A stretch of 64,000 nt of DNA from Gammaproteobacteria bacterium (GCA_963422205.2 CAXMWX010000005.1:544001-608000); one strand, 5' to 3'. Counted from the stretch's first letter, positions 44,218 to 62,085 are shown. The notes: generated by a model from the sequence alone, not told the origin. Translations and numbers: made by a program.

Positions 44218-45573
44218 ATGCCTCCTTACATACACATCTGCCCTGCTATCCTGCTGCTGCTCTTACCCGCTTATCCACCAGGCACCGCTGCCGATAACAA
44301 CACCCCCGAAACCCCGAACACGTCAGCACACCAGAAGATCAGTGCGGCGGAGGCTGCCGAACGCAAGCAGACAGCAAACCGGTTTGCCGAAGAGATAAAA
44401 AGACGGGAGGCTGAATACGGTATTTATGATGCAAAAACCGCTGAATATCTGCTCAGTATCGGCCTGTTGCATCAAGCTGCTGGCAACCACAGCCAGGCGA
44501 TCGGGGCATTGGCACGTGCCCTGCAAATTCAGCGGGTGAACGATGGGCTGCAAAGCGCCAGCCAGTTGATCATCTTGGAACAACTCATCAAAAGCCATAT
44601 CGCCAGCGAGAACTGGGCTGAGGTGGACAAAAATTTCCATCAGCTATTGTGGATCAACCGGCGCAATTATGACCCGGGCGACCCCCGGTTGCTGCCCGTG
44701 ATTGACCGGGTAGGCCGTTGGAAGCTGAAGGCCTACAAAGACGAGTTGCTGGCAGAAAACCCAGTGACGACCCTGCAGGAAGCGGCCAGCCTGTTTACCA
44801 GCACGATCGCCATCCTGGACAAGGAATACGGGGCGCACGCCCCGCTGCTGGTGGATGCGCTTTATGGCGAGGCACTGACCAATTATCAGGTCGCCTTTCA
44901 ACTGCTGCTAACGCCACTGGATGAGTTTCACGGGCGAGGCAGCCCGGACACCTTGCAGACGGTGTGTACACCCATCAGACTCCCCAATGGCCGGATGAGC
45001 CAATCCTGCCGCACGATCAGGGTACCCAACCCGGGCTACTATGCAGGCCGGCAACAAAACAAGAATTTCTCTGTTGCCACCCAGGTCGGCAAAGTCGGCA
45101 AGTCCTTGAAACGGATCATCGCCATCCATGAAGCCAACCCCACACTCCCCCGGCAGCAACATGCGATGGCCCTGGTGCATCTGGGTGACTGGAACCTGCT
45201 GCAAAACCGGCGGACAACCGCATTGCGTGTCTACACGCAAGCATATCAGTTGCTGGCAGGCGACCCGGCGAGCGAAGAGAAACTGCAACGGCTGTTTGGC
45301 AAACCGGTCAGTATTCCGGCCCTGCATCTGCCGCTGCCTGAAGTGGATAAGCAGCTAGATGAGGAGGAGAACAAGGCGTATGCGCTGGCGACATTTGATG
45401 TCTCACAAAGCGGCACACCCAAAAACATCACCATCATCGAGACTCACCCCCCGGCCAGCAAGTCCGCCAGCCGCAAGGCGAAGAAATCGATCAAGGCACG
45501 GCGCTATCGCCCGCGTTTTGTCGATGGGCAGCCGGTAGAGACGACTGGCAACAGGATACGGGTGCTGTTATAA
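44218..45573 (+). CDS. Exported TPR-like protein with a C-terminal TonB-C-like domain
   Basis: Signal peptide, helical TPR-like repeats (LLSIGLLHQAAGNH..AI..L.RAL; LVHLGDW.LL), C-terminal FDVSQSGTPKNITII...RRYRPRFVDGQPV resembling TonB_C. Confidence 0.75.
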   Translation: MPPYIHICPAILLLLLPAYPPGTAADNNTPETPNTSAHQKISAAEAAERKQTANRFAEEIKRREAEYGIYDAKTAEYLLSIGLLHQAAGNHSQAIGALARALQIQRVNDGLQSASQLIILEQLIKSHIASENWAEVDKNFHQLLWINRRNYDPGDPRLLPVIDRVGRWKLKAYKDELLAENPVTTLQEAASLFTSTIAILDKEYGAHAPLLVDALYGEALTNYQVAFQLLLTPLDEFHGRGSPDTLQTVCTPIRLPNGRMSQSCRTIRVPNPGYYAGRQQNKNFSVATQVGKVGKSLKRIIAIHEANPTLPRQQHAMALVHLGDWNLLQNRRTTALRVYTQAYQLLAGDPASEEKLQRLFGKPVSIPALHLPLPEVDKQLDEEENKAYALATFDVSQSGTPKNITIIETHPPASKSASRKAKKSIKARRYRPRFVDGQPVETTGNRIRVLL

Positions 45574-45760: not shown

Positions 45761-46702
45761 ATGCCAAATAAATCCCATGTTAACAAAAGCCATATCGCCA
45801 TAAACAGTCAAAAGAAAAAGGGTATCAGGCACAGTTCTGAAATTAATATAACAACTCATGAGACCCAAAATACCCTCCATGCCGTTTTTATTGAAGACGC
45901 TGTACACATCTTAAAGCAACTCCCTGACTCTTCCGCTCAACTGATATTGATTGATCCCCCCTACAATTTAGCTATGGACCACTGGGATGCTTTTGATAAC
46001 TACCTGGATTGGGCGAGGACATGGATAGATGAGATCTTCCGGGTATTATCCGATACTGGCAGTTGTGTGATTTTCGGCGGTTTCCAATACCAGGACTTGA
46101 AACAAGGCGACCTGCTGGAAATACTGCATTACACAAGGCATTATACCCGGCTCCGTTTCATAAATTTAATTATCTGGTATTACAAAAACGGCATGAGTGC
46201 ACAGCGTTTTTTTGCCAACAGGCATGAAGAGGCAATATGGCTGTCAAAGACAAATAAGTATTATTTTAATCTTGATTCAGTGAGAGTACCCTATAGTGAG
46301 GAGACCAAAAAACTTTATAAAAAAGATAAGCGATTAAACCCTGAAAGTGTGGAAAAGGGGAAAAACCCCACAAATGTTTGGGAAATAAGCCGGCTTAATG
46401 GAAACTCAAAAGAAAGAGTCGGGCACCCTACGCAGAAACCGGTTGAAGTAATTCGCAGATTTGTACGAGGATTATCATACCCCGGTGCTACGGTTTTAGA
46501 TTTTTTTGCCGGCTCAGGCACCACCGGGCGCGTTTGTATAGAAGAGGGGAGAAATTCTGTGCTGATAGATAATGATCCCATGTTAAAAAAATACCTCCAA
46601 TTACATCTATCTCAAATAAAAAATGATATGTTTATCACGCCTTATTCAATTCTAAACAACATAAGTGTGGAAACGGCAATAGATAAAATATTAAAAAATT
46701 GA
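45761..46702 (+). CDS. N6-adenine DNA methyltransferase, M.RsrI-like (predicted GAATTC)
   Basis: DPPYN, IFGG.QYQ, NGMSAQRFFANRHEE, KDKRLNPESVEKG.NPTNVW, RLNGNS.ERVGHPTQKP, LDFFAGSG, closely resembling M.RsrI as I recall it. AT-rich, and next to an EcoRI-like gene. Confidence 0.9.
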   Translation: MPNKSHVNKSHIAINSQKKKGIRHSSEINITTHETQNTLHAVFIEDAVHILKQLPDSSAQLILIDPPYNLAMDHWDAFDNYLDWARTWIDEIFRVLSDTGSCVIFGGFQYQDLKQGDLLEILHYTRHYTRLRFINLIIWYYKNGMSAQRFFANRHEEAIWLSKTNKYYFNLDSVRVPYSEETKKLYKKDKRLNPESVEKGKNPTNVWEISRLNGNSKERVGHPTQKPVEVIRRFVRGLSYPGATVLDFFAGSGTTGRVCIEEGRNSVLIDNDPMLKKYLQLHLSQIKNDMFITPYSILNNISVETAIDKILKN

Positions 46703-46722
46703 TTATTTAGAACAGATGTAGC

Positions 46723-47180
46723 ATGAAAAAGAACCAGGCAGACAGACTTAGCAAGCAACACAAAAAAGTAAAGGTCAAGGGGGGATATTTGGAAAGTCTG
46801 CACAAAAACACGATGTTTCAGTTAAAGATGTATCAAAGCTGGCATTTCAATCGCTTGTGAAAGAGTTTCCAGGGCTGGCATTTCGCTATCGAGAACAAAT
46901 TCAAAAGAAAGCAATTAATCAAAAGCTAAATGAACTGGATAGTCGGCTAGGCATTACGCTTTATGTGGCAAAATCTGCTATTAAGCCTGATGGCGGAATC
47001 ATTGAAGTGAAGGATAAACAAGATCGATGGAGGATTGTTCTTGTATCGGAAGCAAAACACCAGGGGAAAGATATTGAAAATATCAGCAAAGGAGTTTTAG
47101 TCGGGAAAATGAAGAATCAAGACATTATGGTCGCAGGAAATGCCATAGAACGATCTCATCCAGATACTTTACCTGGATAG
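46723..47180 (+). pseudogene. EcoRI/RsrI-family restriction endonuclease, frameshifted and 3'-truncated
   Basis: ATG 46723 MKKNQADRLSKQHKK, then a frame change near the A6/G6 runs (46762-46784) into SKGQGGIFG..KHD...IKPDGGIIEVKD..W..VLVSEAKHQGKD...AGNAIERSH. Similarity then stops at the 3' end of the convergent peptidase gene. Confidence 0.9.
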
Positions 47181-47987
47181 ACGCCGGGCCAGCGATTTTA
47201 ATATCGCAATGCGTTCGGTGGATGAGGGATGTGTGCCGACAAATCCACCTTGGCGATGTTTCTGTGATTTATACAATAATTCCTGTAACCTGACGGCGGC
47301 TTGGGGTTCAAACCCGGCCTCAACCATCCAGACTGTACCGATATAATCGGCCTCACGCTCATTCTCCCGGCTGTAGCGGGTGGCCTCGGCCGTGCGCCAG
47401 GACGATGCCGTCCGGCGGCTTTTTTGCCTTGCCTCCTCGCCATGATCAAGCACGATATGGCCCAACTCATGGCCGATCAAAGCAGCCGCCATGTGCATAT
47501 CATCACCCAGCATATCCAGCATGGCAAAATTGATACCGATCAGGTTTATCTCAACCGCCTCATCATCCTCAGCAACCTTGCCCGGCGGGCCGCCTGTTGT
47601 CCTGGCCATCACGCCGGAACCGCTGGCCTGCTGCTCACGTTTTTTTGCCATCTCCTGCTCTGTGAGTAACCGGCCCTTGACCTTGGTGGCAAAGGCATTC
47701 GGCGCCTGGCCATCGACAATCACCAGCATGGCATTGACCTCAGCAGCCTTTTCGATCCCCTTCAAGGCCGCATAAATACGCAGCAACTGCCGGGTGGGCA
47801 AGGTCTTCAGCAAGCGTCCTTTATCATCATGCAGATCAACCGTATCACCATCGCTCGCCAGCAGGTCACGCACATCCCAGGTGTAAGTGAACGGCGCAGC
47901 TGAGACGATATTGACCGACAGTAATGAGACGATGCAAAGAACAAGCCATCGGTGCTGATATGTTTTTTTACGCTGACATGTACGCAT
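47169..47987 (-). CDS. M48 family metallopeptidase, exported
   Basis: Signal-like N-terminus, PNAFA, AALIGHELGH, YSRENEREAD..G, AGF.P.AA, THPSS.ERI. Confidence 0.9.
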   Translation of the reverse strand: MRTCQRKKTYQHRWLVLCIVSLLSVNIVSAAPFTYTWDVRDLLASDGDTVDLHDDKGRLLKTLPTRQLLRIYAALKGIEKAAEVNAMLVIVDGQAPNAFATKVKGRLLTEQEMAKKREQQASGSGVMARTTGGPPGKVAEDDEAVEINLIGINFAMLDMLGDDMHMAAALIGHELGHIVLDHGEEARQKSRRTASSWRTAEATRYSRENEREADYIGTVWMVEAGFEPQAAVRLQELLYKSQKHRQGGFVGTHPSSTERIAILKSLARRLSR

Positions 47988-48288: not shown

Positions 48289-49074
48289 ATGAATACCAGC
48301 ACAAAACCCCTGAAAATTGCCATGGGGATCGTGATCGCAGGCATCGGCTTGTCTGCCTGTGTGAGTACGCCCACCAGGCCCCCCACCTCCAGCACGAGCG
48401 AACTCTCCGGGCCGCCGCAGGCATCAGGCAAACAGACAGACAGCGAGGCCACCGCCGAACAACACACCACGGCAACACCGCCAGCGCAACCCCAGACCCA
48501 GCCCTCCGCTGAACACACGGACAACACCGCCGCCAGCAGCCGGACAGATGATGAAATTCTGGCAGAGGCGCTTGAAGTCTTTGCCGGGCAATCCAAAGAC
48601 ATGGACGGGGACATGGGCGGCGACCCGCCCGGCAGTGCGAACACAGAAGCCGAAAAAACCGAGCAGCTTGATGAGGAGTTAAATGATCGGTTTGCCGAAT
48701 TCGATCGCCTGATGTTAAAGAAACGCCAGGCAGTGCAAGCCGAGGCTAACCGTGAGGGCAGCGGTCGCCGCATGGACCTGGGCAATGGTTCGGGCAGCAA
48801 CGGCGTATTCGGCGATGAGGATGGCGACATGGACGCCCTGCACAGCGCCAATGCCCGCCCGTCACGGCCATCGCAAGACAGCCGCCAGCGCCATGGCAAT
48901 GAGCCTGTCGCTGCCGATGTGCAAAGCGAAAGTCACGTGCCGGAAGATCTCGCCAGTACGGAAGGTGATGATGTGATCGCCCGGCAGTTGCGCGAGGCGG
49001 CAATGAAAGAACCTGATCCGGAATTACGGGAGAAACTGTGGGATGAATACCGTAAATACAAAAAGAGCCTGTGA
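48289..49074 (+). CDS. Hypothetical lipoprotein; low-complexity acidic body and an ordered C-terminal motif
   Basis: Lipobox LSAC, C-terminal DDVIARQLREAAMKEPDPELREKLWDEYRKYK. First gene of the cluster (start 48271 or 48289). Confidence 0.8.
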   Translation: MNTSTKPLKIAMGIVIAGIGLSACVSTPTRPPTSSTSELSGPPQASGKQTDSEATAEQHTTATPPAQPQTQPSAEHTDNTAASSRTDDEILAEALEVFAGQSKDMDGDMGGDPPGSANTEAEKTEQLDEELNDRFAEFDRLMLKKRQAVQAEANREGSGRRMDLGNGSGSNGVFGDEDGDMDALHSANARPSRPSQDSRQRHGNEPVAADVQSESHVPEDLASTEGDDVIARQLREAAMKEPDPELREKLWDEYRKYKKSL

Positions 49075-49075
49075 G

Positions 49076-50275
49076 ATGAATGTTGCCAACACGCTGCCCG
49101 CCGTGCTGCTGTTGTTTGCCGGCCTGGTGCTGTCCGGTTGTAACTCCACCACGGTCAAGACCACCGCACACGAGCAAGTGATCACCGCCAATGACAGCCT
49201 GCCGGAAGACCTTATCCTTGATGTCGGCATAGGTATTTTTAATCCGGGCGTGGATAGCCTGAGCGCCAGAGAGGAAGGCGTGTACCCGCAGATCCGAAAG
49301 GCCGAGGCCCGTTACATGCCCCGCCTCATGCAACAGACCCTGCAACAAACGGGCAACTGGGGCGCTGTGCGGGTGATCCCTGAGCGCCTGAGCGAGATGG
49401 ATGTCTGGGTGGATGCCGAAATTCTCAGATCCGATGGTGAAAACCTCTGGTTACAGGTGCAGGTGCAAGATGCCAGCGGGCGGGTGTGGTTCAATAGAAA
49501 ATACACCGAACAAGCGAGTAAATTTTCATACGATACCGCCATCGGCGGACGCGTGGAGCCTTTCCAGGGGCTGTATAACAAAGTCGCCAACGACATGCTG
49601 CAATACCGTCGGCAGTTGAGTTTCAATGAACTGCAAACCATACGCACAGTGGCTGAATTGAAGTTTGCCAAGGCGTTCACTCCGGCGTTGTACAACGGGC
49701 ATCTGCAAGCCGACAAGCGCGGGCGGTACAGTATCACCCGCCTGCCAGCGGCGGGTGATCCGGTGTTTGCGCGGCTGCGGCAGATCCGGGAGCGCGACCA
49801 TATCTTCGTTGATACATTGCAGCAATACTATGACTCTTTTTACCGCCAGATGGAGGTGCCCTACCGGGAATGGCGTGAAGCCTTCTACATAGAAAATGCG
49901 GCCTTGAAAGAAGTGCGCTCACAGGCAAATGCCCGCCTGATTGGCGGTCTGCTGGCCGTTGCTGCCGGCATCCTCGCCCAGGGCAGCGGCAGCCGCACAG
50001 CACGCTCGGCCGGGGCGGTTGGCATCGGTGCGGGCGCCCTGGCTGTGCAAAGCGGCTTGGGCAAACGCCAGGAAGCCAAGATTCACGTTGAGGCGCTGGC
50101 AGAAATTTCAGACTCCCTGAATGCGGAGATCGAGCCACACACAGTGACGCTGGAAGATCGCACAGTGACGCTGACCGGCACAGTAAAAGAACAATATCAG
50201 CAATGGCGTCAGCTATTAAAAGCCATCTACCACAGCGAAACCGGACTGGCAAGTACGCCGCCAGATCAACGGTAG
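49076..50275 (+). CDS. Hypothetical lipoprotein with a glycine-zipper-like segment
   Basis: Lipobox LSGC, segment LIGGLLAVAAGILAQGSGS..AGAVGIGAGALAV. Starts 1 bp after the upstream stop. Confidence 0.85.
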   Translation: MNVANTLPAVLLLFAGLVLSGCNSTTVKTTAHEQVITANDSLPEDLILDVGIGIFNPGVDSLSAREEGVYPQIRKAEARYMPRLMQQTLQQTGNWGAVRVIPERLSEMDVWVDAEILRSDGENLWLQVQVQDASGRVWFNRKYTEQASKFSYDTAIGGRVEPFQGLYNKVANDMLQYRRQLSFNELQTIRTVAELKFAKAFTPALYNGHLQADKRGRYSITRLPAAGDPVFARLRQIRERDHIFVDTLQQYYDSFYRQMEVPYREWREAFYIENAALKEVRSQANARLIGGLLAVAAGILAQGSGSRTARSAGAVGIGAGALAVQSGLGKRQEAKIHVEALAEISDSLNAEIEPHTVTLEDRTVTLTGTVKEQYQQWRQLLKAIYHSETGLASTPPDQR

Positions 50276-50429
50276 ATGCAGGCACAGCCGGACCGGATGG
50301 ACATATCCTGCCCGGCTTGAATGCGCGCTGGCGGCCACGGCTTCCCGAACTTCACGCCGCCTGACCGATACCGGCACTGTCACAGACGAGCGCCGGATTC
50401 AGGCACTGCTTTGAAAAAAATACGCTTCC

Positions 50430-51992
50430 ATGACAAACGCTAATCAGACAAATTCCGGCGTAAGAAAAATTACCCCTGTCAGCATCAAGCCAGGCAACCC
50501 ATCTCACATAGCCGCCGCACAGGCAGACAAACCCATAGCCGCCAACACGCTGTTGCTGGTGATGTTGCCGGTGGTATTTCTGGCCGCATTGGCGGTGATC
50601 TTTGTCCTGCCAGCGATGATCAGCACGCCTGAAACACAGGCCCCCGCTATCGGCCAGCAGCAGGATGATACACCTGCCAAAAATACCGCGGCGACTCGCA
50701 ACCCCGCCGACAGAGCGGCGGCGGCCATATCTCCATGGGAGATGGCACAACAAAGCGAATTACGCAAGCAAACCCAGCATATCCTGGCCGAGATGCTGGA
50801 AGCACAGCAAACCCTGACGGCAAAAGGCGTTGAGGTCTGGGCGAGCGCAGATTATGCCCGGGCGATGCAACACGCCGAAGCAGGCGATCAGCACTACAGC
50901 AAGCAGGACTTCAGCACCGCAAAGACAGAATACAGCCAGGCCCTGGCCATCTTCTCAACGCTACTGGAACGTGTCGATACCCTGTTTGCCGAGGCGCTGC
51001 TTGCCGGACAGCAGGCCCTGCTTGCAGGTGATGCCATTGCCGCCCACACCGCATTCGATCGGGCCCTGCTCATTGATCCCATCGATCGAAAAGCACTGGC
51101 AGGCAAGGCAAGGGCTGAGAACATAGCCGAGGTGTTTGCCCTGCTAAGGCAGGGCGAGGATCTGTTGCAGGAAGACAAACTCTCCGAAGCAAAGGCTTAT
51201 TTTCAACAAGCCTATACCCTGGATAACGCACTGCCGGTGGCGGCCGAGAGGATCCAACACGTGGATGCGTTGATAGAAAACCGCAAGTTCAGCAAGGCCA
51301 TGTCGGCGGGTTTTCAGCAGTTGCAGAATAATCATCTGCAACAGGCACGGCAATCTTTCTCCGATGCCCTTCGCATCTCGCCGAACTCCAAGGATGCCAT
51401 TGCCGCCCTGAACCAGACCAGACACAAGATCACAGCCAATAACATCGCCAGGTTGATGCAACAGGCGAGGGAGCATGAACATAACGAGCAGTGGCCAGAG
51501 GCGCTGGAGAATTATCAAGCGGCCTTAAAACTCGATGCCAATCTTTTGAGCGCACAACAAGGCATCAGCCGGGCACAGCTCTGGGCGGACATTCACAAAA
51601 AAATGACCCAGATTCTCACCCGACCTGAGCGCCTGTATGATCCGGCGGTATTCGCTGAGACGACAACCTTTCTCGCCAATATCAAGCAAGTCGCTGCACC
51701 GGGCGAGAAATTCAAGGCCAAGCTCGCCCGCTTGACCACGGCAATTGCCAGGGCCGGTAGCCCGGTCCCGGTGCGTTTGCAGTCCGACAACAAAACGCAG
51801 ATCAACCTGTATAAAGTGGGGGAGTTAGGCCAGTTTGCCGATAAAGAGCTGGTACTGCGCCCCGGCAGGTATGTCGCTGTGGGGCAGCGGGAGGGCTATC
51901 GTGATGTCAGGGTGGAATTTTTTGTTGAACCCGATAAAGCCATCGAGCCGATCGTGATCGTCTCGCAGGAAAAAATAGCGCTCAGCAAATAG
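50430..51992 (+). CDS. Membrane-anchored TPR protein with a C-terminal PEGA-like beta domain
   Basis: One N-terminal TM segment, TPR-type repeats (AFDRALLIDP, FQQAYTLD, FSDALRISP, YQAALKLD), C-terminal LRPGRYVAVG.REGYRDVR. Confidence 0.8.
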   Translation: MTNANQTNSGVRKITPVSIKPGNPSHIAAAQADKPIAANTLLLVMLPVVFLAALAVIFVLPAMISTPETQAPAIGQQQDDTPAKNTAATRNPADRAAAAISPWEMAQQSELRKQTQHILAEMLEAQQTLTAKGVEVWASADYARAMQHAEAGDQHYSKQDFSTAKTEYSQALAIFSTLLERVDTLFAEALLAGQQALLAGDAIAAHTAFDRALLIDPIDRKALAGKARAENIAEVFALLRQGEDLLQEDKLSEAKAYFQQAYTLDNALPVAAERIQHVDALIENRKFSKAMSAGFQQLQNNHLQQARQSFSDALRISPNSKDAIAALNQTRHKITANNIARLMQQAREHEHNEQWPEALENYQAALKLDANLLSAQQGISRAQLWADIHKKMTQILTRPERLYDPAVFAETTTFLANIKQVAAPGEKFKAKLARLTTAIARAGSPVPVRLQSDNKTQINLYKVGELGQFADKELVLRPGRYVAVGQREGYRDVRVEFFVEPDKAIEPIVIVSQEKIALSK

Positions 51993-52014
51993 GCCGCCAT
52001 TGCTCAACACACGT

Positions 52015-54102
52015 ATGACTGTGGATACCAAACACACTCACGACAGGCAACGCACCGCATCAAGGCAGATAACACCGGCAAAATTTATCCCCCAGGAAAA
52101 CTTGCTGGGCAACAGGCAAGGGCGGTGGCGTATTAACAGGCCGCTGGTGCTGATCTCTGCCGCCCTGTTACTCATTGCCAGCATCGTGTTTTTTCTGCTG
52201 ACGGCGAAGGCCATCCACATAGAAACCGAGCCAGCGCAAAGTGATATAACCATCGCCAGCCGGCTGATGTTCAAGCTGGGCACAAGCTACCTGCTGCTCC
52301 CCGGCGAGCATAAGATAGCGCTGGCCGCCCCTGGCTATTACGACCTTGAAGAGAGCCTGGTTGTCGGCAGTAAGGGTCAGCAAAAATTCTTCTTTCAGTT
52401 GGACAAGCTGCCCGGCAGCTTAAAGGTAGAGACGGGTGCGCTAACCGGTGCTGAGGTCTTGCTTGATGGTGAGCGCAAGGGAAAGACACCGGTGGTGATT
52501 AACGCACTACCAGCCGGCAGGTATAAAATCGATATTCTCCTGGAGGGTTATCTTCCTCACACAGAGGAAGTTGACCTGAAAGGATTAGGCAAAGAGAACC
52601 ACCTGAAGGCGGAGTTGCTGCCCGCCTGGGCCGAAGTCAGCTTTACCTCCCGGCCTGAAAATGCCGAGTTGTATGTTGACGATACGCTGATCGGCCAGAC
52701 TCCCTTAACCACCAATATCATGCAGGGACAGCACACAGCCAGTGTAAGACGGCGTGGGTATAAGCAATGGCAGCGCACCCTCAAGGTGACGGCGGGGGAG
52801 GCGCAGCGCTTCGATGAGATTACGCTGGCACCGGCCGATGCCACGGTGGTATTGCAGTCGAAGCCCAGTGCCGCCAGCGTCACTGTCGATGGTAACTACC
52901 AGGGCTTAACGCCGATTGAGTTTGCCGTCACGCCCGATACAACTGCCCGGATCAGCCTGTTCAAGCAGGGCTACAAACCGGCAGCACACACAGTCAAACT
53001 GGCATCCGGTGAGCAAAAGCACGTCACGATCACGCTGGCTGCCCGCCTGGTCGAGATCGTGTTCAGCGTTGAACCGGCCGATGCCGAACTGTATATCAAC
53101 GGCAAGCGGCAAGCGGCGGCAAACACCCGCATTCAACTGCCCGCCCGCCAGCATAACATGGAAGTAAAACGTGACGGCTATGTCACGGTGAGCAAAAACA
53201 TATCACCGCACAGCGGGCTGGTGCAGCACGTGCGTGTGCGGCTGAAGTCATTGCAGGAGGTGAAGCGGGAATCCGTACAACCCATCATCAAGACCTCTGC
53301 CGGCCAGACGCTTAAATTATTCAGGCCCGGCGAGTTCACGGCCGGTGCCTCACGCCGGGAGCCAGGCCGGCAGGCCAATGAAACCCTGCAAAAGATCCGG
53401 CTGGGACGAGCGTTTTATATGAGCCTGCATGAAGTCACCAATGCACAGTACAAGCTGTTCAAACCCGGCCATTCAGCCGGCCGGATACAGGGTCACTCAC
53501 TGGATCAGGGCAGCCACCCGGTCACCAGGGTAAGCTGGCAGGATGCCGCAAAATACTGCAACTGGCTTAGCCGCCAGGAGAAACTGACGTCTTTCTATGA
53601 GGAGAGTAACAGTAAGATTGTCGGTATAAACCCGGCTGCCGATGGCTATCGCCTGCCCACGGAAGCGGAGTGGGCCTGGGCTGCCCGTACCCGGGCTGAC
53701 AAGCCGATGTTGAAATTTCCCTGGGGCGGCCAGATGCCGCCGACAGAGAAGAGTGGTAACTTTGCCGATACCAGTTCGGCCAATTTTATTGGTAAGATCA
53801 TCGGCGGGTATAATGATGGCTTTCCGGTCACGGCACCTGTGGGCAGTTTCATGGCGAATGACAAGGGGCTGTTTGATATGGGCGGCAATGTCGCTGAATG
53901 GGTCAATGACTTCTATGATATCGCTGTCAGTCAAAAGACCGTCCTGCGTGATCCCTTAGGGCCGAAAAGCGGTGAGTTTTATGTTATCCGCGGCTCTGGC
54001 TGGGCACATGGAACGATTACCGAATTGCGTTTGTCTTACCGTGATTATGGTAGCGAGCCCAGGGACGATGTGGGCTTCAGGATTGCGCGATTTTTGGAGT
54101 GA
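52015..54102 (+). CDS. Membrane-anchored PEGA-repeat protein with a C-terminal FGE-sulfatase (SUMF1/GldK-like) domain
   Basis: TM segment, several PEGA units (S.P..A.V.VDG...G.TP, ..GY), then HEVTNAQY, HPVTRVSWQDAAKYC.WLS, YRLPTEAEW, GLFDMGGNVAEW, GFRIAR. Confidence 0.9.
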   Translation: MTVDTKHTHDRQRTASRQITPAKFIPQENLLGNRQGRWRINRPLVLISAALLLIASIVFFLLTAKAIHIETEPAQSDITIASRLMFKLGTSYLLLPGEHKIALAAPGYYDLEESLVVGSKGQQKFFFQLDKLPGSLKVETGALTGAEVLLDGERKGKTPVVINALPAGRYKIDILLEGYLPHTEEVDLKGLGKENHLKAELLPAWAEVSFTSRPENAELYVDDTLIGQTPLTTNIMQGQHTASVRRRGYKQWQRTLKVTAGEAQRFDEITLAPADATVVLQSKPSAASVTVDGNYQGLTPIEFAVTPDTTARISLFKQGYKPAAHTVKLASGEQKHVTITLAARLVEIVFSVEPADAELYINGKRQAAANTRIQLPARQHNMEVKRDGYVTVSKNISPHSGLVQHVRVRLKSLQEVKRESVQPIIKTSAGQTLKLFRPGEFTAGASRREPGRQANETLQKIRLGRAFYMSLHEVTNAQYKLFKPGHSAGRIQGHSLDQGSHPVTRVSWQDAAKYCNWLSRQEKLTSFYEESNSKIVGINPAADGYRLPTEAEWAWAARTRADKPMLKFPWGGQMPPTEKSGNFADTSSANFIGKIIGGYNDGFPVTAPVGSFMANDKGLFDMGGNVAEWVNDFYDIAVSQKTVLRDPLGPKSGEFYVIRGSGWAHGTITELRLSYRDYGSEPRDDVGFRIARFLE

Positions 54103-54308
54103 AGATGCGAGATATTGTTTTTATCCTCTTACTGCTTGGCATGAGTCCATCGGCGGCGCAAAAGACCGCCGATCAGGATACAGACGAGAAAACCGATAAA
54201 AACACAGAGAAAACACAGGCAACAGAGCAGGAACGGCGGCCGGAGGTGTTCAATCCAACAGAACAACTCTCCGAAGACAAAGACATTTCTTTCCCCACGG
54301 ATATCTAG
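54099..54308 (+). CDS. Small exported hypothetical protein
   Basis: 69 aa, signal peptide, charged linker, tail FNPTEQLSEDKDISFPTDI. Overlaps the upstream stop and lies 2 bp before the ExbB-like gene. Confidence 0.7.
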   Translation: MKMRDIVFILLLLGMSPSAAQKTADQDTDEKTDKNTEKTQATEQERRPEVFNPTEQLSEDKDISFPTDI

Positions 54309-54310
54309 CG

Positions 54311-55114
54311 ATGTTAATGAAGCATAACCCGGTCTCGGATTTTCTCTACCAGCTATTTGCCCTGTTCATCTCCATCATCATTGTGCATGCTGTCTATGTC
54401 ACCCTCATCAGACCAAAAGCCGATGCCATACTCGAACAGCAGCGTAGCAGGCAGGAGGCAGGACAGAGTTATGAAATAAGGCGCTCGGTGTATATCGTCA
54501 TCAAAGACTTTGAACAGGAAGCCTGCTTTATTCTCGCCTTCTGGGTAAGTGCCATCATCGGCCTGAAGACCAAAATCGCCCTGCAGGAAAGAAGACTGCT
54601 GACACGCTCACTGCTCAAAGTAACGCCCGGCACCCGTATATTGCCACAGGATGCCCGACAGTATGCCAGACCCATACAGGCATTGGCTGAGGATGAGCGC
54701 GAATTTTTATTGCCGCGGGCCTTATTGGCGGCATTGCAACGGTTTGGCTCAACGGCCAATATTCAGGATGTCTCAACGGCAATACGTGAGACCTGTGAGA
54801 CTGAATCTGATCGGCTGGATTCTGAGTTGTCCATGGTGCGCTACATCATCTGGGCAATACCCTCTATCGGTTTCATCGGCACAGTCCGGGGGATTGGTGA
54901 AGCCCTGGGCCAGGCACACAAGGCCGTAGAAGGGGATATTGTCGGTGTGACAGTGAGCCTGGGGGTGGCGTTTAACTCAACCTTCATCGCCCTGATTATC
55001 AGCATTCTGATCATGTTTTTAATGCACCAGTTGCAGTTATTGCAGGAGCGCCTGGTGCTGGATACACAGAACTATTGTGATATAAATTTATTACGCCACC
55101 TGCAAGTACGCTGA
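54311..55114 (+). CDS. MotA/TolQ/ExbB proton channel family protein
   Basis: WAIPSIGFIGTVRGI and LGVAFNSTFIAL helices, plus N-terminal TM segments. Confidence 0.92.
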   Translation: MLMKHNPVSDFLYQLFALFISIIIVHAVYVTLIRPKADAILEQQRSRQEAGQSYEIRRSVYIVIKDFEQEACFILAFWVSAIIGLKTKIALQERRLLTRSLLKVTPGTRILPQDARQYARPIQALAEDEREFLLPRALLAALQRFGSTANIQDVSTAIRETCETESDRLDSELSMVRYIIWAIPSIGFIGTVRGIGEALGQAHKAVEGDIVGVTVSLGVAFNSTFIALIISILIMFLMHQLQLLQERLVLDTQNYCDINLLRHLQVR

Positions 55115-55127
55115 CGGAGAGAGGCAG

Positions 55128-56450
55128 GTGAGAGTGATAGCAGAGCTCAATGACAGCAACATCACTGTCGCAACGATCAGCCGAATCATTGCCATGAGTC
55201 CCGGTGTTGCGATCATACGGGATGATACCATTGAACTGGGACAGGCGGCAGCAGACAAGCTGCACTTGTATCCACAAAATGCACACACACGATTCTGGAG
55301 TGAGCTCAATCTGGATAGGTTAAAAATCACATCAGGGCTGGCACGCCACCATGCCGATCTTGCATTTGCCCATATCGGCTTGATCCATGAACTGGCTGGC
55401 AAGCCTGAAGAGCTGGTGCTGGCTGTGCCTGGCAGTTTCTCTGAGAAGCAATTATCGCTGCTGGCCGGCCTGCTTGAAGCCGCCCCGTTTCAGGTTACCT
55501 CCTTGGTCGATACTGCCGTGGCCGCCATTGCCAGCCATCCAATCGCCGGACATTGTCAATACGTTGATATCGTCTTGCATCAAATCGTGATTACCACCGT
55601 GGAAGTCACCGACAGGGTACGGCTGATAACAACACAGGTGCTGGATGATACCGGCCTCTCAGCGGTTTATGATAACTGTGCACAGGTGATTGCTGATCTG
55701 TTTATTGCCCAATCCAGGTTCGACCCATTGCACCATGCAGAGACCGAGCAACGATTGTATGACCGGCTGCCCCACTGCTTGCAGTCGCTAACGCAACAAG
55801 ACGAGACCGTATTCGTGATTGACTATCAGCAAACGCCTCATCAGGCCAAGGTAAAACAGCAGGCACTGGCGGCTGCCCTGGCCGGTATGTGTGATAAGCT
55901 GAACGCCGTCCTTAACCCCGACATGACCACTGTACTGAACAACAGAGTAGCGCTGATCCCGGGCCTGCAAACACAACTGGATGGGGCCGTTGTGCTTGAC
56001 AGTCACGCCGTGTTTGCCGGGGCCTGCCTGTTCCCGCTACCGGCCGCCGATGACAGTCATGTTAATTTTGTCACCGAAATACCGCTGGATACAGCCGCTG
56101 CCCCGGTGAGAACAACTGCCAGCACACCGGCCCCGTCTCAGCCAACAGCAAGCCCCCCTGCCGCCACACACCTGCTGATTGCACATGAGGCCCACCCGGT
56201 CACAGACCGGCCGCTTTATCTGCATCTAAATAACAACAGTTTAGCGCTCAGTGATAAAAAAGCAGCGACTAACTGCGTTTTTCAGCAACGCCAGGGAAGT
56301 ATCCAGCTTGCCTGTGATGCGGCGGCTGATATTACGATCAACGGACAGATGGTAACCGGCAATCACCGGCTGGTTTGCGGTGATATGATTCAAACAGTTG
56401 CAGGGCAGATAACAGCCATCCGCATCAAAGACGAACATGAGCCGACCTAA
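55128..56450 (+). CDS. Hypothetical protein: degenerate Hsp70/actin-like domain plus a C-terminal FHA-like domain
   Basis: SPGVAII..D.IELGQAA.....YPQN and LVLAVPGSFSEKQ...L...V..LVD.AVAA echo DnaK segments. Pro/Ala/Thr linker. ITINGQMV....RL.CGDMI tail. Confidence 0.6.
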   Translation: MRVIAELNDSNITVATISRIIAMSPGVAIIRDDTIELGQAAADKLHLYPQNAHTRFWSELNLDRLKITSGLARHHADLAFAHIGLIHELAGKPEELVLAVPGSFSEKQLSLLAGLLEAAPFQVTSLVDTAVAAIASHPIAGHCQYVDIVLHQIVITTVEVTDRVRLITTQVLDDTGLSAVYDNCAQVIADLFIAQSRFDPLHHAETEQRLYDRLPHCLQSLTQQDETVFVIDYQQTPHQAKVKQQALAAALAGMCDKLNAVLNPDMTTVLNNRVALIPGLQTQLDGAVVLDSHAVFAGACLFPLPAADDSHVNFVTEIPLDTAAAPVRTTASTPAPSQPTASPPAATHLLIAHEAHPVTDRPLYLHLNNNSLALSDKKAATNCVFQQRQGSIQLACDAAADITINGQMVTGNHRLVCGDMIQTVAGQITAIRIKDEHEPT

Positions 56451-57525
56451 ACGAACACTCTCGGCATTCAGCCTGTCATTTCTCGATATCATGTCCTGCG
56501 GCTTTGGTGCTGCCGTGTTGTTGTTCTTGATCATTAAACACAAAGTCGATACCCCCGAACCCATACCCTTAACCAGCAAAGATCAAACCTCAGAAGTCAT
56601 GCTGCTGGAAGAGGAGATACTGACAGGGAAAAAAAATCTGGCCGCCTTACGCAACACCCTGGAGGCAATAGAAGAGGAGATGATAACAGCACAGGGACGG
56701 GCCAGGCAGGTAAGTTCTGAGATCAGGGAAGTGGCAATGCACACACAGGCCATTGAGCCAGATGCTGTGGCGGCTGAACTTGAGGCATTGAAAACCAGAA
56801 TCAAAAAACTGGAACAACAGAAAAACAGCATCGCAGCAGAGAACAGCAAGACGGGGGAACAGGCATTGAAAATCAGCGGCGAAGGCAATCGCCAATATAT
56901 CACGGGCCTGCGGCTGGATGGCAGACGCTCATTGATCCTGCTGGATATCTCGGCCAGCATGCTGGATCGTACTGTTGTCAACATCCTGCGTTTTCGCAAC
57001 CTGCGTGATGAGCGCAAGCGGCTGGCACACAAATGGCAACAGGCCATTAAGATCGTTGAATGGTTAATGGCCAACCTGCCGGCGGACAGTCAATACCAAC
57101 TCTACCTGTTCAATACCGATACGCTGTCTGCCTTGCCTGACAGCAAAGGTCGCTGGCTTGATGTGGACGATAAAACCACATTGCAAAAAGTCATCGAACG
57201 GCTCAAGCGGCAGGTGCCTGAAAACGGCACCAACCTGGAAAACGCCTTCATCGTGGCACGGCAATTACGTCCGGCGCCCGACAATATTTACCTGATTACT
57301 GACGGCCTGCCAACCCAGGGTTCCAGGACCTATCGTGGTGCAACGATTACGGCTAATCAGCGTCAGAAATTATTTGAAAGAGCGATTCAAAAACTCCCTG
57401 ACAGGTTGCCAATCAATGTCATTCTGACGCCTATGGAAGGCGATCTGCAAGCTGCGTTTGCATTCTGGCAACTGTCCCAGCGCACCAACGGTGCTTTTAT
57501 CAGTCCGCAAGAGGGCTGGCCCTGA
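56437..57525 (+). CDS. ExbD/TolR-like TM segment, coiled coil and vWA domain
   Basis: TM FSLSFLDIMSCGFGAAVLLFLI with an intramembrane Asp, heptad-rich stalk, MIDAS LLDISASM...GTNL...YLITDG. Confidence 0.85.
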   Translation: MSRPKRTLSAFSLSFLDIMSCGFGAAVLLFLIIKHKVDTPEPIPLTSKDQTSEVMLLEEEILTGKKNLAALRNTLEAIEEEMITAQGRARQVSSEIREVAMHTQAIEPDAVAAELEALKTRIKKLEQQKNSIAAENSKTGEQALKISGEGNRQYITGLRLDGRRSLILLDISASMLDRTVVNILRFRNLRDERKRLAHKWQQAIKIVEWLMANLPADSQYQLYLFNTDTLSALPDSKGRWLDVDDKTTLQKVIERLKRQVPENGTNLENAFIVARQLRPAPDNIYLITDGLPTQGSRTYRGATITANQRQKLFERAIQKLPDRLPINVILTPMEGDLQAAFAFWQLSQRTNGAFISPQEGWP

Positions 57526-57534
57526 GGCAAAAAC

Positions 57535-58524
57535 ATGAAGCGAGAAAAACGGACACCAGATGCCTTCAGCATTGCCTTTCTGGATGTCATCACCTGCGGT
57601 TTCGGGGCGATCATCTTGTTGCTGATGATCGCCAAGACCGGTGATACACCGATACTGGAGACAGCGACAGAATCCCTGCAAGGCATAGTGCGTGATCTAC
57701 AGGTACAGCTATTTGAAATCCGTGGCGAAGCCAGGGTATTGAACCGCGACCTGACCGATAAAAAAGAGCAGCTGTCGCAATGGGATGAGCGCATCGCCAA
57801 GCTGCAAGCCGAACTGGCGCTTGCCAAAAAACGCCAGCAGGCCATACGCAATGATTCGACTTTCAATGCCATCATCAAAGGCGAGTATCAAACCGCACTG
57901 CAAAAACTCACCGCCGAAATGAAACGCCTGCTTGCACAGCAACAAACCGCACAGAACGATCTGGTGGCGGGGATCTCGGCGGATACCGAGTACCTGATCT
58001 TCATCATTGACACCTCCGGCAGCATGGTGAATAACCACTGGAACAGGATGATAACGGAAATGATCAACACGCTGGATGCCTATCCGAGACTAAAAGGCAT
58101 ACAGATCATGAGCGATATGGGCGAGTATCTGTTTTCCCAGTTTCGCGGCCGATGGATTCCCGATACCAGGGGCCGGCGCCGGGCGATTATCAGCACCCTC
58201 AGAGGCTGGCGCACATTCAGCAACAGCAATCCGGCGGAGGGTATCACCGCCGCCATACGCACATTTTATGATGACGGTAAAAAGATCAGCATCTATGTCT
58301 ATGGCGATGAATTTCCCGGCCGATCGTTTGCGGAAGTGCTGGCGATTGTTGACCGGATAAACCCGAAGGACAGAGATGGCAATACCAAAGTGCAAATACA
58401 TGCTGTAGGCTTTCCGGCAGGTCGGCAACAACATCCGCAATATCAATTTACCAACGAGCGGTTTGCCGGACTCATGCGGGAATTAACCTACAGAAATGGT
58501 GGCACCTTCGTGGGATTAAACTAA
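57535..58524 (+). CDS. ExbD/TolR-like TM segment, coiled coil and vWA domain (second paralog)
   Basis: TM FSIAFLDVITCGFGAIILLLMI, coiled coil, MIDAS FIIDTSGSM...YVYGDEF, IHAVGFP, NGGTFVGL. Confidence 0.85.
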   Translation: MKREKRTPDAFSIAFLDVITCGFGAIILLLMIAKTGDTPILETATESLQGIVRDLQVQLFEIRGEARVLNRDLTDKKEQLSQWDERIAKLQAELALAKKRQQAIRNDSTFNAIIKGEYQTALQKLTAEMKRLLAQQQTAQNDLVAGISADTEYLIFIIDTSGSMVNNHWNRMITEMINTLDAYPRLKGIQIMSDMGEYLFSQFRGRWIPDTRGRRRAIISTLRGWRTFSNSNPAEGITAAIRTFYDDGKKISIYVYGDEFPGRSFAEVLAIVDRINPKDRDGNTKVQIHAVGFPAGRQQHPQYQFTNERFAGLMRELTYRNGGTFVGLN

Positions 58525-58587
58525 AATGACAGGTACTCTGAAATCATTCGCTTATAAGCGGGTATAACAAAAACAGGAAAACAACGC

Positions 58588-59193
58588 ATGCGAACAGTGC
58601 AGATACTCCCATACTTGCTGCTAACGATGACCCTGCTGGCCTGTAGTCAGTCGGTCACCATGAAGGTAGCCCCCGATATTCCCGCACCACGGGTGGAACA
58701 ACTGCCGCTGACAATGGGGATTTACTACGATGACACATTCCGTCATTATGCCTACAAAGAAGATTCGGCAGAACGGCCTGACTGGACAATTAACAGCGGT
58801 GAATCGCAAGTCCTGTTATTTGAGCAGATTTTCTCATCCATGTTTGCCCGGACTGAACAGGTCGCCGGCCATGCCGCTAACAGCGGCGTGGATGGTATTC
58901 TTTATCCTGAAGTTATCGAGATGCAATTCGCCCTGCCTGCCGAGACAAAGACGGATTTTTATGAATACTGGGTTAAGTACAAAATTGCATTATACGATAA
59001 CCAGGGTAACTTCGTTGCCGACTGGCCGGTTACCGGTTATGGTAAATCCTCTACTGAATTTCTCAAGAGTCGCGACAAGGGGCTTAACGCAGCGATTAAC
59101 CAGGCATTGCGCGATGTCGGCGCCAAACTGGCGATCGACTTTACCAGGGTAAGCGGTGTGGCCAAATGGCTGGCGGACAGACAGGCCAACTGA
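58588..59193 (+). CDS. Hypothetical lipoprotein
   Basis: Lipobox LLAC, alpha/beta pattern, SD AGGA. Confidence 0.8.
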   Translation: MRTVQILPYLLLTMTLLACSQSVTMKVAPDIPAPRVEQLPLTMGIYYDDTFRHYAYKEDSAERPDWTINSGESQVLLFEQIFSSMFARTEQVAGHAANSGVDGILYPEVIEMQFALPAETKTDFYEYWVKYKIALYDNQGNFVADWPVTGYGKSSTEFLKSRDKGLNAAINQALRDVGAKLAIDFTRVSGVAKWLADRQAN

Positions 59194-59207
59194 GTGACGG
59201 AGATGCC

Positions 59208-59873
59208 ATGCAAATCATACGGTATAGCAAGCTGTTCAGCCTTATCATCGTATTAACGGCCTGCAAAAGCACAACGGTGATCGATCAGCACCGGGAATTG
59301 GTCAACACGAGTCTGCGTGCTGGTGAATCCGTTGTCGTACTGGGGCGGCGGCATAGCATCCGCCATGAGACAGAGGCAAAATTCATCAACTGCATCGGCC
59401 AGAGTCTCGGCCAGGGCGAAAACCGGATTCGAGTCATTCCAGAGAAGACCTTCATCGATACCATGTATCCGCATTTTGAAACCAGCACCGCCCCTGTTGA
59501 TGTAAAAAACCTGAAAAAACTTATGCAGAATCCGGCGCTCGCCAGCAAGTTTGATGAGTTTAATATTCGCTACTTCATCTGGATCGACGGCTCAACGGAA
59601 ACAACAGATAAATCCGGCTCAATGTCCTGTGCAGTCGGCCCGGGTGGCGGTGGCTGTTTCGGCTTCACCTACTGGAGCGATGAGGCCAACTATGAAGCCA
59701 GCATCTGGGATTTCAAGGGCTTAGCTATCAGCGGAAAAATCAATGCAGAAAGCAAAGGCACGTCTTTCATGCCCGCCGTGATCATACCGATACCGCTGCT
59801 GGCACAGGTACAAAGCAGCACCTGTAAATCCTTGTCCCGGCAGATCAAGGCTTTCATTGCCGAACAAAGTTAA
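59208..59873 (+). CDS. Hypothetical lipoprotein
   Basis: Lipobox LTAC, SCAVGPGGGGCFG loop, hydrophobic PAVIIPIPLL segment. Last gene before a convergent gene. Confidence 0.8.
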   Translation: MQIIRYSKLFSLIIVLTACKSTTVIDQHRELVNTSLRAGESVVVLGRRHSIRHETEAKFINCIGQSLGQGENRIRVIPEKTFIDTMYPHFETSTAPVDVKNLKKLMQNPALASKFDEFNIRYFIWIDGSTETTDKSGSMSCAVGPGGGGCFGFTYWSDEANYEASIWDFKGLAISGKINAESKGTSFMPAVIIPIPLLAQVQSSTCKSLSRQIKAFIAEQS

Positions 59874-61020: not shown

Positions 61021-62085
61021 CTAGTAATTGACCTTGGGGCTGCCTGCAGGATAGAAAACACCCATCAGACGCATACCCTCGGCACTCGTGCATTCCAGGG
61101 CATGATCCTGTTTGGCCGGCAGGAAAATAATATCGCCCGGCCCGACTGCTGCCTTGACTGTATCCGTCCACATCATGCCTGAACCTGAGAGGATATAAAT
61201 CACCTCTTCATAGAGATGGCGGTGATACGCTGCCTTGGATTGCGGGATCTCGCCAATAAATTGTGTCACCTGCTCACAGCCAAGCTGCTGATTGATCAGC
61301 TCCTGTAGAAAACGATCTGCCATCGTCTCACGCTTGTCTTCCGCATAGGTTCTTGTGCGCTCCGGCTGACTGATATCAAAATCAGTCGGCATGCTATCAG
61401 GCAGTATCAACTGAGCATCACCCGGGCAGACGGTGATCAGCGCATCAATCAACTCTCCACTTTCATTACCTAGAGAGAACACTTCTCCAGAGCGAATATA
61501 GGCACCAGTTTCCAACGGCATGGCAAAGGCTTTGCCCGAGATAATAATACTGCCAGAACCCTGGGAAAAAAACACCACTACCTCTGCACCTGGAAAGGTC
61601 ATAAGCGGTGAGGTGCCTTGTTCAACAAGCACGGTGTATTGCGCCAGATGTTTAGCCCCGGTTGCAGCGGATATGATGGGTGCTATCCGCAGATTGCCAT
61701 AGCGTTGCAGGGCAGCCGGATTACGCCGCAATACATAACAACCATTATCAAGCCGGGCTTGTTGTGAAACATTATCAATAAACGTACCGTAACCCGTCTC
61801 TGTAACATCAACATGGTCATCCGGCTCTGCTTCTGCATATTTATCGAGCAGGTTATTATGCGAACCATCGCAAAAAGGCGGGGATCTGGTATGTTTGCAG
61901 GCGCAAAAAATCCGTTCTTCATCTTGCTCGGGGACATAGCGTAAAGGTTTAAATTCTGTCCCCTCATGTGCACCATCACAAAACGGTTGCTTACTACTGC
62001 GTCCACAACGACACCAGGTATAAGGCCTGCCCGTCTTAAGCTGCACAAAGTAAGGTTTTAATCTGGCGATTACCGGCTCAGTCAT
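61021..62085 (-). CDS. Tandem CDGSH [2Fe-2S] domains fused to a bicupin
   Basis: WCRCGRSSKQPFCDGAH and FCACKHTRSPPFCDGSH. C-terminal cupin HRHLYEE..YILSGSG...GDIIFLP....H. The middle cupin lacks metal His residues. Confidence 0.88.
   Translation of the reverse strand: MTEPVIARLKPYFVQLKTGRPYTWCRCGRSSKQPFCDGAHEGTEFKPLRYVPEQDEERIFCACKHTRSPPFCDGSHNNLLDKYAEAEPDDHVDVTETGYGTFIDNVSQQARLDNGCYVLRRNPAALQRYGNLRIAPIISAATGAKHLAQYTVLVEQGTSPLMTFPGAEVVVFFSQGSGSIIISGKAFAMPLETGAYIRSGEVFSLGNESGELIDALITVCPGDAQLILPDSMPTDFDISQPERTRTYAEDKRETMADRFLQELINQQLGCEQVTQFIGEIPQSKAAYHRHLYEEVIYILSGSGMMWTDTVKAAVGPGDIIFLPAKQDHALECTSAEGMRLMGVFYPAGSPKVNY

Follow-up and report, generated by a model that had tools for sequence, protein, structure and literature searches.

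A conserved gene cluster predicted to encode an ion-driven envelope machine with paired vWA heads

Gene content and distribution

The window, that is, the whole 64,000-nucleotide stretch of DNA that was analysed, comes from Gammaproteobacteria bacterium (GCA_963422205.2 CAXMWX010000005.1:544001-608000) and holds at 48289-59873 a cluster of 11 open reading frames, all on the + strand, called g1 to g11 here. An initial annotation had read them as one envelope machine driven by the proton motive force. The open reading frame listing places the genes where that annotation had put them, and the inventory of parts it gave (an ExbB-type subunit, TPR, PEGA-FGE and vWA proteins, a secreted peptide and lipoproteins) is borne out by Pfam matches, hydropathy and lipobox counts. 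The boundary it drew was too narrow, as the cluster takes in two further genes, u and one for an M48 peptidase; a second correction is that only eight of the 11 genes make up the core. The genes are listed below, with ‘core’ and ‘accessory’ used in the sense developed further on.

u: 44218-45573, + strand; exported TPR protein with a C-terminal TonB-C domain; accessory; here a restriction-modification (R-M) remnant lies between u and g1
M48 zinc peptidase (BepA/LoiP-related): 47169-47987, - strand; accessory; Pfam Peptidase_M48, E 2e-13
g1: 48289-49074, + strand; core; lipoprotein here; no recognised family
g2: 49076-50275, + strand; core; lipoprotein with a FlgT/PelC/CsgG/TolB-N-type alpha/beta domain and a helical hairpin; predicted outer-membrane ring
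g3: 50430-51992, + strand; core; single-pass inner-membrane protein with TPR repeats in the periplasm and a beta domain, conserved, at the C-terminus
g4: 52000-54102, + strand; core; single-pass protein with PEGA repeats and a cysteine-less head of FGE/C-type-lectin fold
g5: 54099-54308, + strand; core; exported peptide of 69 residues
g6: 54311-55114, + strand; core; MotA/TolQ/ExbB-family channel subunit (PF01618)
g7: 55128-56450, + strand; accessory; cytoplasmic protein with the Hsp70 nucleotide-binding-domain fold, degenerate phosphate loops and an FHA-like tail
g8: 56437-57525, + strand; core; trans-pore helix with Asp17, coiled coil of about 90 residues, vWA head
g9: 57535-58524, + strand; core; paralogue of g8 with the same architecture
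g10: 58588-59193, + strand; accessory; lipoprotein, likely of YajG/LptE-type fold
g11: 59208-59873, + strand; accessory; lipoprotein with four invariant Cys, possibly of CsgG/CT253-type fold

From g1 to g11 the gaps are 1, 154, 7, -4, 2, 13, -14, 9, 63 and 14 bp, with the ATG of g2 at 49076. Pfam recognises MotA_ExbB in g6 (E 7e-15), PEGA (E 2e-52) and FGE-sulfatase (E 3e-41) in g4, TPR_2 in g3 (E 1e-11) and VWA_2 in g8 (E 1.5e-7); the same scan gives no match for g1, g2, g7, g10 and g11, and weak coiled-coil matches only for g9. Hydropathy places a single hydrophobic helix near the N-terminus of each of g3, g4, g8 and g9. The lipobox pattern is found in most homologues of the four lipoproteins (g1, 53/67; g2, 55/67; g10, 57/68; g11, 54/67); the comparison genes have it in 3/49 cases (the upstream TPR gene) and 3/50 (g5). 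A promoter scan was uninformative (9 sites, 8.6 expected), and a scan for strong + strand terminators found none.

That these genes belong together, as first annotated, is confirmed by their neighbourhoods in other genomes, where they co-occur in a fixed order. Searching genome contigs with g6 gives at least 499 relatives among 578 candidate stretches, of which the best 80, at 63-83% identity, were retained; being the closest relatives, these loci are not independent, and many reach contig edges. Within the 80, tblastn finds g4 in 78, g7 in 77, g8 and g9 in 76 each, g3 in 71, g10 in 69, g1 and g2 in 68 each, g11 in 67 and g5 in 47. All 11 genes are present in 59 loci and collinear in 59/59, by profiles built from the same loci; since the order is kept in every one, the association is not due to chance. 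Loci with full flanks are complete in 56/60 cases; two lack g1-g3 and two lack g10-g11. In loci L022 and L044 the cluster starts at g4, with no g1-g3 within 10 kb; it may be split there, not reduced. Beyond the 13 cluster and accessory genes, no family reaches a count above 12 in the best 80 loci.

A wider view comes from 401 genomes sampled evenly across the phylum, in which g9 has a strong match in 12 (the window's genome included) and a marginal one in a single further genome; 11 of the 12 hold two matches each. Nine stretches were examined from this sample: two carry the long form, as in the window; six carry a short form, which runs g1-g2-g3-g4-g5-g6-g8-g9 and has no g7; the ninth, a short contig, has g6, g8 and g9. 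Four of the six short-form loci have room for g10 and g11 and lack them, and in the other two the contig stops shortly past g9. The presence of the short form in distant genomes defines the unit as an eight-gene core (g1-g6, g8 and g9) with accessories: g7, g10, g11, and often u and the M48 peptidase, are accessory members of the long form. In one family outside the window's class (f42), eight genomes have the short form, suggesting that it is common in that lineage. Cultured carriers include Microbulbifer, which has the long form, Halioxenophilus and Pseudomaricurvus; Pseudoalteromonas, Alishewanella and Aliidiomarina hold further relatives, with the eight-gene form in Pseudoalteromonas and Aliidiomarina. 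The cluster is real and conserved, and is kept in dozens of mostly marine bacteria, sponge-associated Proteobacteria among them.

The predicted motor

In ExbBD, TolQR and MotAB, a conserved transmembrane Asp and conserved Thr residues couple ion flow to movement. Counterparts of both are invariant here: Thr191 and Thr224 of g6 are each found in 79/79 sequences, Asp17 of g8 in 75/75 and Asp17 of g9 in 73/73. The initial annotation had called g8 and g9 ExbD-like; the Asp-bearing helix is indeed common to them, and the ExbD domain is absent. The consensus of their trans-pore helices has no His, and hence no SHLS motif. What follows the helix in both is a coiled coil of about 90 residues (the coiled-coil matches of g9 fall at profile positions 35-147), and then a vWA head. 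The two proteins are related to one another (HHalign 99.4%, 21% identical), and both are matched in 76/80 g6 loci, g7 standing between g6 and g8 in the long form. By analogy with the characterised motors, g6, g8 and g9 likely form a 5:2 proton-driven motor.

The heads are as constant as the helix. In g8 the metal site is intact (DxSxS, Thr and Asp: D170, S172, S174 and D289 in 75/75 sequences, T/S265 in 75/75); in g9 the DxSxS and the second Asp are intact (D159, S161, S163 and D258 in 73/73), and the DxSxS motif recurs in 12/12 short-form proteins checked. Invariance of both metal sites argues that ligand capture is under selection; judged by these residues, the heads are likely metal-dependent binders.

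The motor was initially proposed to be separate from Ton and Tol-Pal, and this holds on identity, profile scores and gene context, the grounds on which the separation is based. The genome has its own Tol-Pal and ExbBD sets elsewhere: it carries six PF01618 genes, three ExbD genes and 29 TonB-dependent transporter matches, and TolB, ExbD and transporter genes all lie outside the cluster. The three PF02472 matches (3/3) are on other contigs than the cluster, and the single TolB_N match follows TolQ/TolR on contig C11. Identity of g6 to the genome's other family members is 23-24%. Its best PDB match is TolQ, at E 0.2, and in that weak alignment the Thr pair of g6 falls on TolQ Thr positions.

The same genome holds a second non-canonical MotA/TolQ/ExbB-family gene (contig C13:55794-57707), followed by an Asp-helix partner with no ExbD Pfam match and then by a small membrane protein.

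Predicted ring, struts and accessory proteins

The fold of g2 comes from an AlphaFold model with a mean predicted local distance difference test score (pLDDT) of 77.8. Residues of about 20-165 resemble FlgT in the LPHT ring (VIA Z 10.4, root-mean-square deviation (rmsd) 4.7 over 170 aligned), and further neighbours are XCC0632 (Z 9.9), PelC (9.6, rmsd 2.2 over 108 aligned), CT253 (9.5), the curli complex (9.4), TolB (9.1) and TraT (6.7); Foldseek agrees with these. The domain leads on to a long helical hairpin. Its tip, where pLDDT is below 50, is not resolved in the model; it contains two uncharged, Gly-rich hydrophobic segments with mean hydropathy of 2.2 and 1.5 over 13 residues. Helices of this kind make up the outer-membrane barrel of TraT, which reportedly does not act as a pore (PMC11733297).

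The kinship of g10 and g11 with g2 is less direct, for the idea of a shared fold is based on the fold search with g2 and on ESM Atlas leads for the other two. As leads only, the nearest named Atlas clusters for g10, at 0.95, have Lipoprotein_16 in 48% and LptE in 22% of members; those for g11, at 0.92, have CsgG in 19% of members, and the CT253 family. The alignment of g11 shows four invariant Cys. Profile comparison with g2 detects no homology (probability 5% for g10, 0.2% for g11). Against PDB sequences the g2 and g11 profiles give 0 matches at E 1 and that of g10 noise only, and Pfam scans of all g2, g10 and g11 members yield no consistent family. On the modelled fold, g2, with g10 and g11 in the long form, is predicted to be an outer-membrane-anchored ring.

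Of the single-pass proteins, g4 has four Pfam PEGA stretches and an FGE head in which the positions aligned to the catalytic cysteine pair are not Cys. The initial annotation's reading of this head as a non-catalytic FGE fold is upheld by the missing cysteines, and the identification of g4 as a catalytic formylglycine-generating enzyme is rejected. Against the GldK model it scores 115.7 bits, with a cut-off of 350, and is only distantly GldK-like.

Two of the exported core proteins have low-complexity segments and conserved C-terminal motifs. In g1, a lipoprotein here and exported with no lipobox in the short form, low-complexity linkers accompany a conserved C-terminal helical motif. In g5, a signal peptide and a variable acidic linker precede the conserved motif FxP(T/S)ExISEDxxxxFPxDI-stop. 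The g5 motif is found upstream of g6 in 74/79 loci, by a search pattern that included the last five positions; the conserved columns upstream lay outside the pattern, and are Asp at -10 (75/75), Glu at -15 (74), Ser at -12 (72) and Phe at -19 (69). All six short-form loci (6/6) have a version of 35-55 residues with the same five-residue terminal motif, which places g5 in the core. In one clade (loci L004, L006, L009, L013, L015 and L028) the g4-g5 junction holds 0.8-4.5 kb of mobile genes, and the cluster is retained; these are toxin-antitoxin-like, methylase and other mobile genes, as labelled from their translations, and the junction has the appearance of an insertion hot spot.

One way to assemble these parts is as a proton-powered exporter, in the manner of type IX secretion (T9SS) or of CsgG/PelC: g2 would be an outer-membrane channel, and the vWA heads would push or pull a cargo (g1, partners tagged by g5, or a polymer). 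The likeness of g2 to the PelC, CsgG and TraT folds speaks for it, TraT having a helical barrel that inserts into the outer membrane (PMC11733297), as do the relation of the g4 head to the T9SS ring protein GldK/PorK and the exported, low-complexity character of g1 and g5 with their conserved C-terminal motifs. Several features fit it poorly: no variable cargo gene is linked, nor any extra family in more than 12/80 loci; the TraT barrel is reportedly not a pore; and g4 is anchored in the inner membrane, unlike the lipoprotein GldK, and scores far under the GldK cut-off. Export ranks second among the readings and is on balance unlikely.

The accessory g7 is settled as an Hsp70 fold by structure (AlphaFold pLDDT 92.2; Foldseek E 1e-15 to Hsp70s; VIA Z 27.6 to Ssz1, rmsd 3.4 over 311 residues, 21.6 to MreB and 14.7 to PilM), its profile matching the genome's DnaK weakly. 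Of the initial annotation's cytoplasmic Hsp70-fold/FHA-like protein, then, the first half stands firmly and the FHA-like tail weakly (EssC FHA at E 0.002; Pfam FHA in 2/74 members). Phosphate loop 1 reads (E/D)LND and loop 2 (D/E)xxLH, as against the DLG motifs of the genome's DnaK. There is no peptide-binding domain, and in the model the C-terminus is a small beta domain. The Gly/Thr phosphate loops and the peptide-binding domain of an Hsp70 chaperone are both missing; g7 is likely a non-catalytic scaffold or switch.

The two flanking genes vary in position. Among 67 loci, u is the immediate upstream neighbour of g1 in 41; in 2 more it lies within 570 bp, and in 6 it is found elsewhere; it is absent from 11, and 7 have no room. 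The M48 gene directly follows g11 in 31 (20 long and 11 short forms of the peptidase), stands ahead of g1 in divergent orientation in 7, which is the window's arrangement, and is otherwise placed in 3; it is absent from 23, and 3 have no room. Four M48 examples scanned matched BepA, LoiP or HtpX models below cut-off, the long forms pointing to BepA. Six loci of close relatives (L016-L019, L023 and L111) have after the M48 gene, in convergent orientation, a TPR gene of about 200 residues with no TonB-C part.

In u itself, Pfam finds TPR_12 (E 5e-8) and TonB_C (E 4e-4), and a profile search matches TonB2 (2k9k, E 2e-10); the N-terminus has a marginal hydrophobic stretch and no strong membrane anchor. 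A TonB-C gene, which the initial annotation had left out, thus travels with the long form. It raises the possibility of an alternative energiser of import, in which the motor would pull TonB-dependent transporters through the soluble u. To the adjacency in 41/67 loci of a true TonB-C domain may be added the 29 transporter matches in the genome. Set against these are the absence of u from the short form and from the 11 long-form loci with room, the lack of a strong anchor, the existence of unlinked paralogues, the want of any transporter gene conserved nearby, and the genome's ordinary Ton sets; such a role is distinctly improbable. The unlinked paralogues of u in this genome are at C3:222393-223661 and C11:311507-312193, the latter near the type IV pilus genes pilM-pilQ.

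Between u and the cluster, at 45761-47180 of the window, are an N6/N4 DNA methylase gene and what is left of an EcoRI-family endonuclease gene, truncated to profile positions 32-131 of 257; the G+C fraction of this insert is 0.40, against 0.54-0.57. Further downstream, at 61021-62085 on the minus strand, a CDGSH iron-sulfur domain is fused with two cupin domains, beside a class V aminotransferase gene.

A role in anti-phage defence or in contact sensing can also be imagined, in which a Zorya-like motor would sense envelope damage. R-M and toxin-antitoxin-like genes do occur in or beside the cluster, here and in 6/7 long-gap loci inspected. PADLOC, for its part, has no match for g6 or any other core gene, save weak coiled-coil matches for g8, and no nuclease or other effector is present; the 63-83% identity of g6 and the fixed gene order fit vertical, housekeeping-type inheritance. 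This is highly improbable.

Interpretation and relation to known systems

The reading preferred here, at a probability of roughly 0.4, is that the cluster encodes a proton-powered remodeller, in which a motor grips and twists proteins at a lipoprotein ring, most likely in the service of assembly, release or turnover of proteins associated with the outer membrane. Five g6 subunits would surround the helices of g8 and g9, and proton flow would turn g6 relative to this axle, as suggested by ExbBD, TolQR and MotAB and by a published AlphaFold3 model from 2025. The coiled coil of about 90 residues (some 13-14 nm) would hold both metal-dependent vWA heads out across the periplasm; the predicted g2 ring, with g10 and g11 in the long form, would be held in the outer membrane by lipid and by the hydrophobic hairpin; g3 and g4 are predicted to act as inner-membrane struts that keep the motor aligned with the ring. 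What the clamps catch might be an acidic ligand, with g5 as the obvious candidate: its acidic C-terminal motif might be the ligand or adaptor taken up by a vWA metal site or by the FGE head. Rotation might then twist or pull the protein so bound. The M48 peptidase could clear the products, and g7 could serve as a cytoplasmic regulator or localiser. The whole might, by analogy, be an ATP-free periplasmic counterpart of the MoxR AAA+/vWA remodellers.

Remodelling is ranked first because a BepA/LoiP-type peptidase is linked, because parts of TolB-N and TonB-C type are present, because no variable cargo gene is found, and because the vWA clamp has a precedent in NorQD. The peptidase is linked in 38/67 loci and the TonB-C protein in 43/67; the fold neighbours of g2 are outer-membrane and periplasmic ring and envelope proteins, and the leads for g10 and g11 are to the same fold family. 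The cluster is kept beside complete Tol-Pal and Ton sets, and whether or not the genome has flagellin or PilM.

Several considerations weigh against this. The peptidase, the TonB-C protein and the Hsp70-fold protein are missing from the eight-gene form, and so cannot define the core job. The VIA Z scores of g2, at 9-10, are only modestly over background, the tip of its hairpin is modelled at low confidence, and its fold family includes monomers (the TolB N-domain, LptE) as well as secretion channels (CsgG, PelC), so that export fits it equally. Occurrence is patchy, at 12 strong matches in 401 genomes, and the cluster is therefore dispensable in most lineages. A more general proposal has a little short of an even chance: an axle with two metal-dependent vWA clamps would catch g5 and draw it, by turning or pulling, through a ring of lipoproteins that has a helical barrel in the outer membrane, making a sixth kind of 5:2 ion-motor machine, either a new export route or an ATP-free periplasmic remodeller.

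The comparison with NorQD is a works-like analogy only: in both, motor force would act through a vWA clamp, and in NorQD the vWA domains are reported as force-bearing clamps of the motor (PMC13036017). The cluster has no AAA+ ATPase, and its force would be ion-driven and periplasmic.

Agl-Glt resembles the cluster in having one pentamer subunit with two unlike axle subunits, and TPR, FHA-like, TonB-C and vWA parts. It differs in that the axle here carries vWA and not ExbD, and in that vWA is tethered to the inner membrane and is not a surface lipoprotein. A surface-motility or adhesion motor of this type was the analogy offered by the initial annotation, and gliding is suggested for a sister vWA-transducer family (PMC12204202). 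No positive support was found in the cluster: the Agl/Glt NCBIfam families have no match at E 0.05 among 17 proteins, no beta-barrel or surface adhesin is recognised, and the vWA heads have an inner-membrane tether. A survey of 57 carrier genomes (47 from the 80 loci and 10 others) found flagellin in 21, a PilM match in 50 (46 strong) and neither in 10. These 10/57, with neither flagellin nor a strong PilM match, count in favour of motility; with flagellin in 21/57 and strong PilM in 46/57, the cluster neither tracks nor replaces known motility. The named carriers Microbulbifer, Porticoccus, Pseudoalteromonas and Aliidiomarina are not known to glide. Motility is quite unlikely.

The T9SS and gliding ring (GldK/PorK and GldJ, with the GldLM motor) shares with the cluster a non-catalytic FGE fold, near the outer membrane in that case, a proton motor and long periplasmic arms. 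Here the motor is PF01618 and not GldL/M, for which there is no match, g4 is an inner-membrane PEGA fusion, and no SprA or PorV is recognised.

With Ton and Tol-Pal the cluster has in common a PF01618 subunit with a Thr pair, Asp-bearing partner helices, a TolB-N-like fold (g2) and TonB-C (u); it has no ExbD/TolR domain, membrane-anchored TonB/TolA, beta-propeller or Pal. A canonical Ton system is rejected, as there is no PF02472 in the cluster and u is neither core nor strongly anchored; a canonical Tol-Pal system is rejected, as no tolA, tolB or pal is found among 17 proteins scanned. A flagellar stator is rejected on the absence of flagellin from a genome that is 98% complete (PilM is present), and Zorya on the absence of any Zorya model match among 13 proteins in PADLOC, with no ZorA/ZorB and no nuclease or helicase effector.

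The closest relation is to a class described computationally by Williams-Jones et al. in 2025 (PMC12204202): TolQ-like genes, each accompanied by a heterologous pair of vWA proteins with trans-pore helices, a trio modelled as a motor with AlphaFold3, for which the paper states no function. The likeness is detailed: a TolQ-like gene is tightly linked to two unlike membrane-tethered vWA genes, with an Asp in each helix, no SHLS motif, a Thr ring, and no syntenic tolR or exbD. A short-form homologue of g9 (E 7e-66 to the g9 profile) is 49-57% identical to Idiomarina/Aliidiomarina proteins, and it is from this genus group that the paper took its seed. Different here are the position of g7 between g6 and g8 and the definition of five further core and up to five accessory genes; section 8 and one supplement of that paper leave the other cluster genes unnamed, with 0 matches to PEGA, formylglycine or SUMF1 in them, though the cluster figure may show these genes. 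In the open-access literature no other description of the cluster was found, and the available text of a paper on vWA conflict systems (PMC7159879) does not mention TolQ/ExbB. The motor core, g6/g8/g9, matches the published prediction, and the machine around it is undescribed as far as the literature searches reach. The initial annotation knew of no functional description; the motor core had in fact been described computationally in PMC12204202, though with no function assigned and with none of the other genes. The parts list, the eight-gene minimal form and the cultured carriers make the question raised by that paper directly testable.

Each of the characterised systems that use a motor of this family (flagellar stator, Ton, Tol-Pal, Agl-Glt and Zorya) underlies a major part of envelope physiology. 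The axle here would end in ligand-binding heads, not in a wall-binding or TonB-binding domain, and among the five further core genes are candidate struts, a candidate outer-membrane ring and a candidate peptide ligand.

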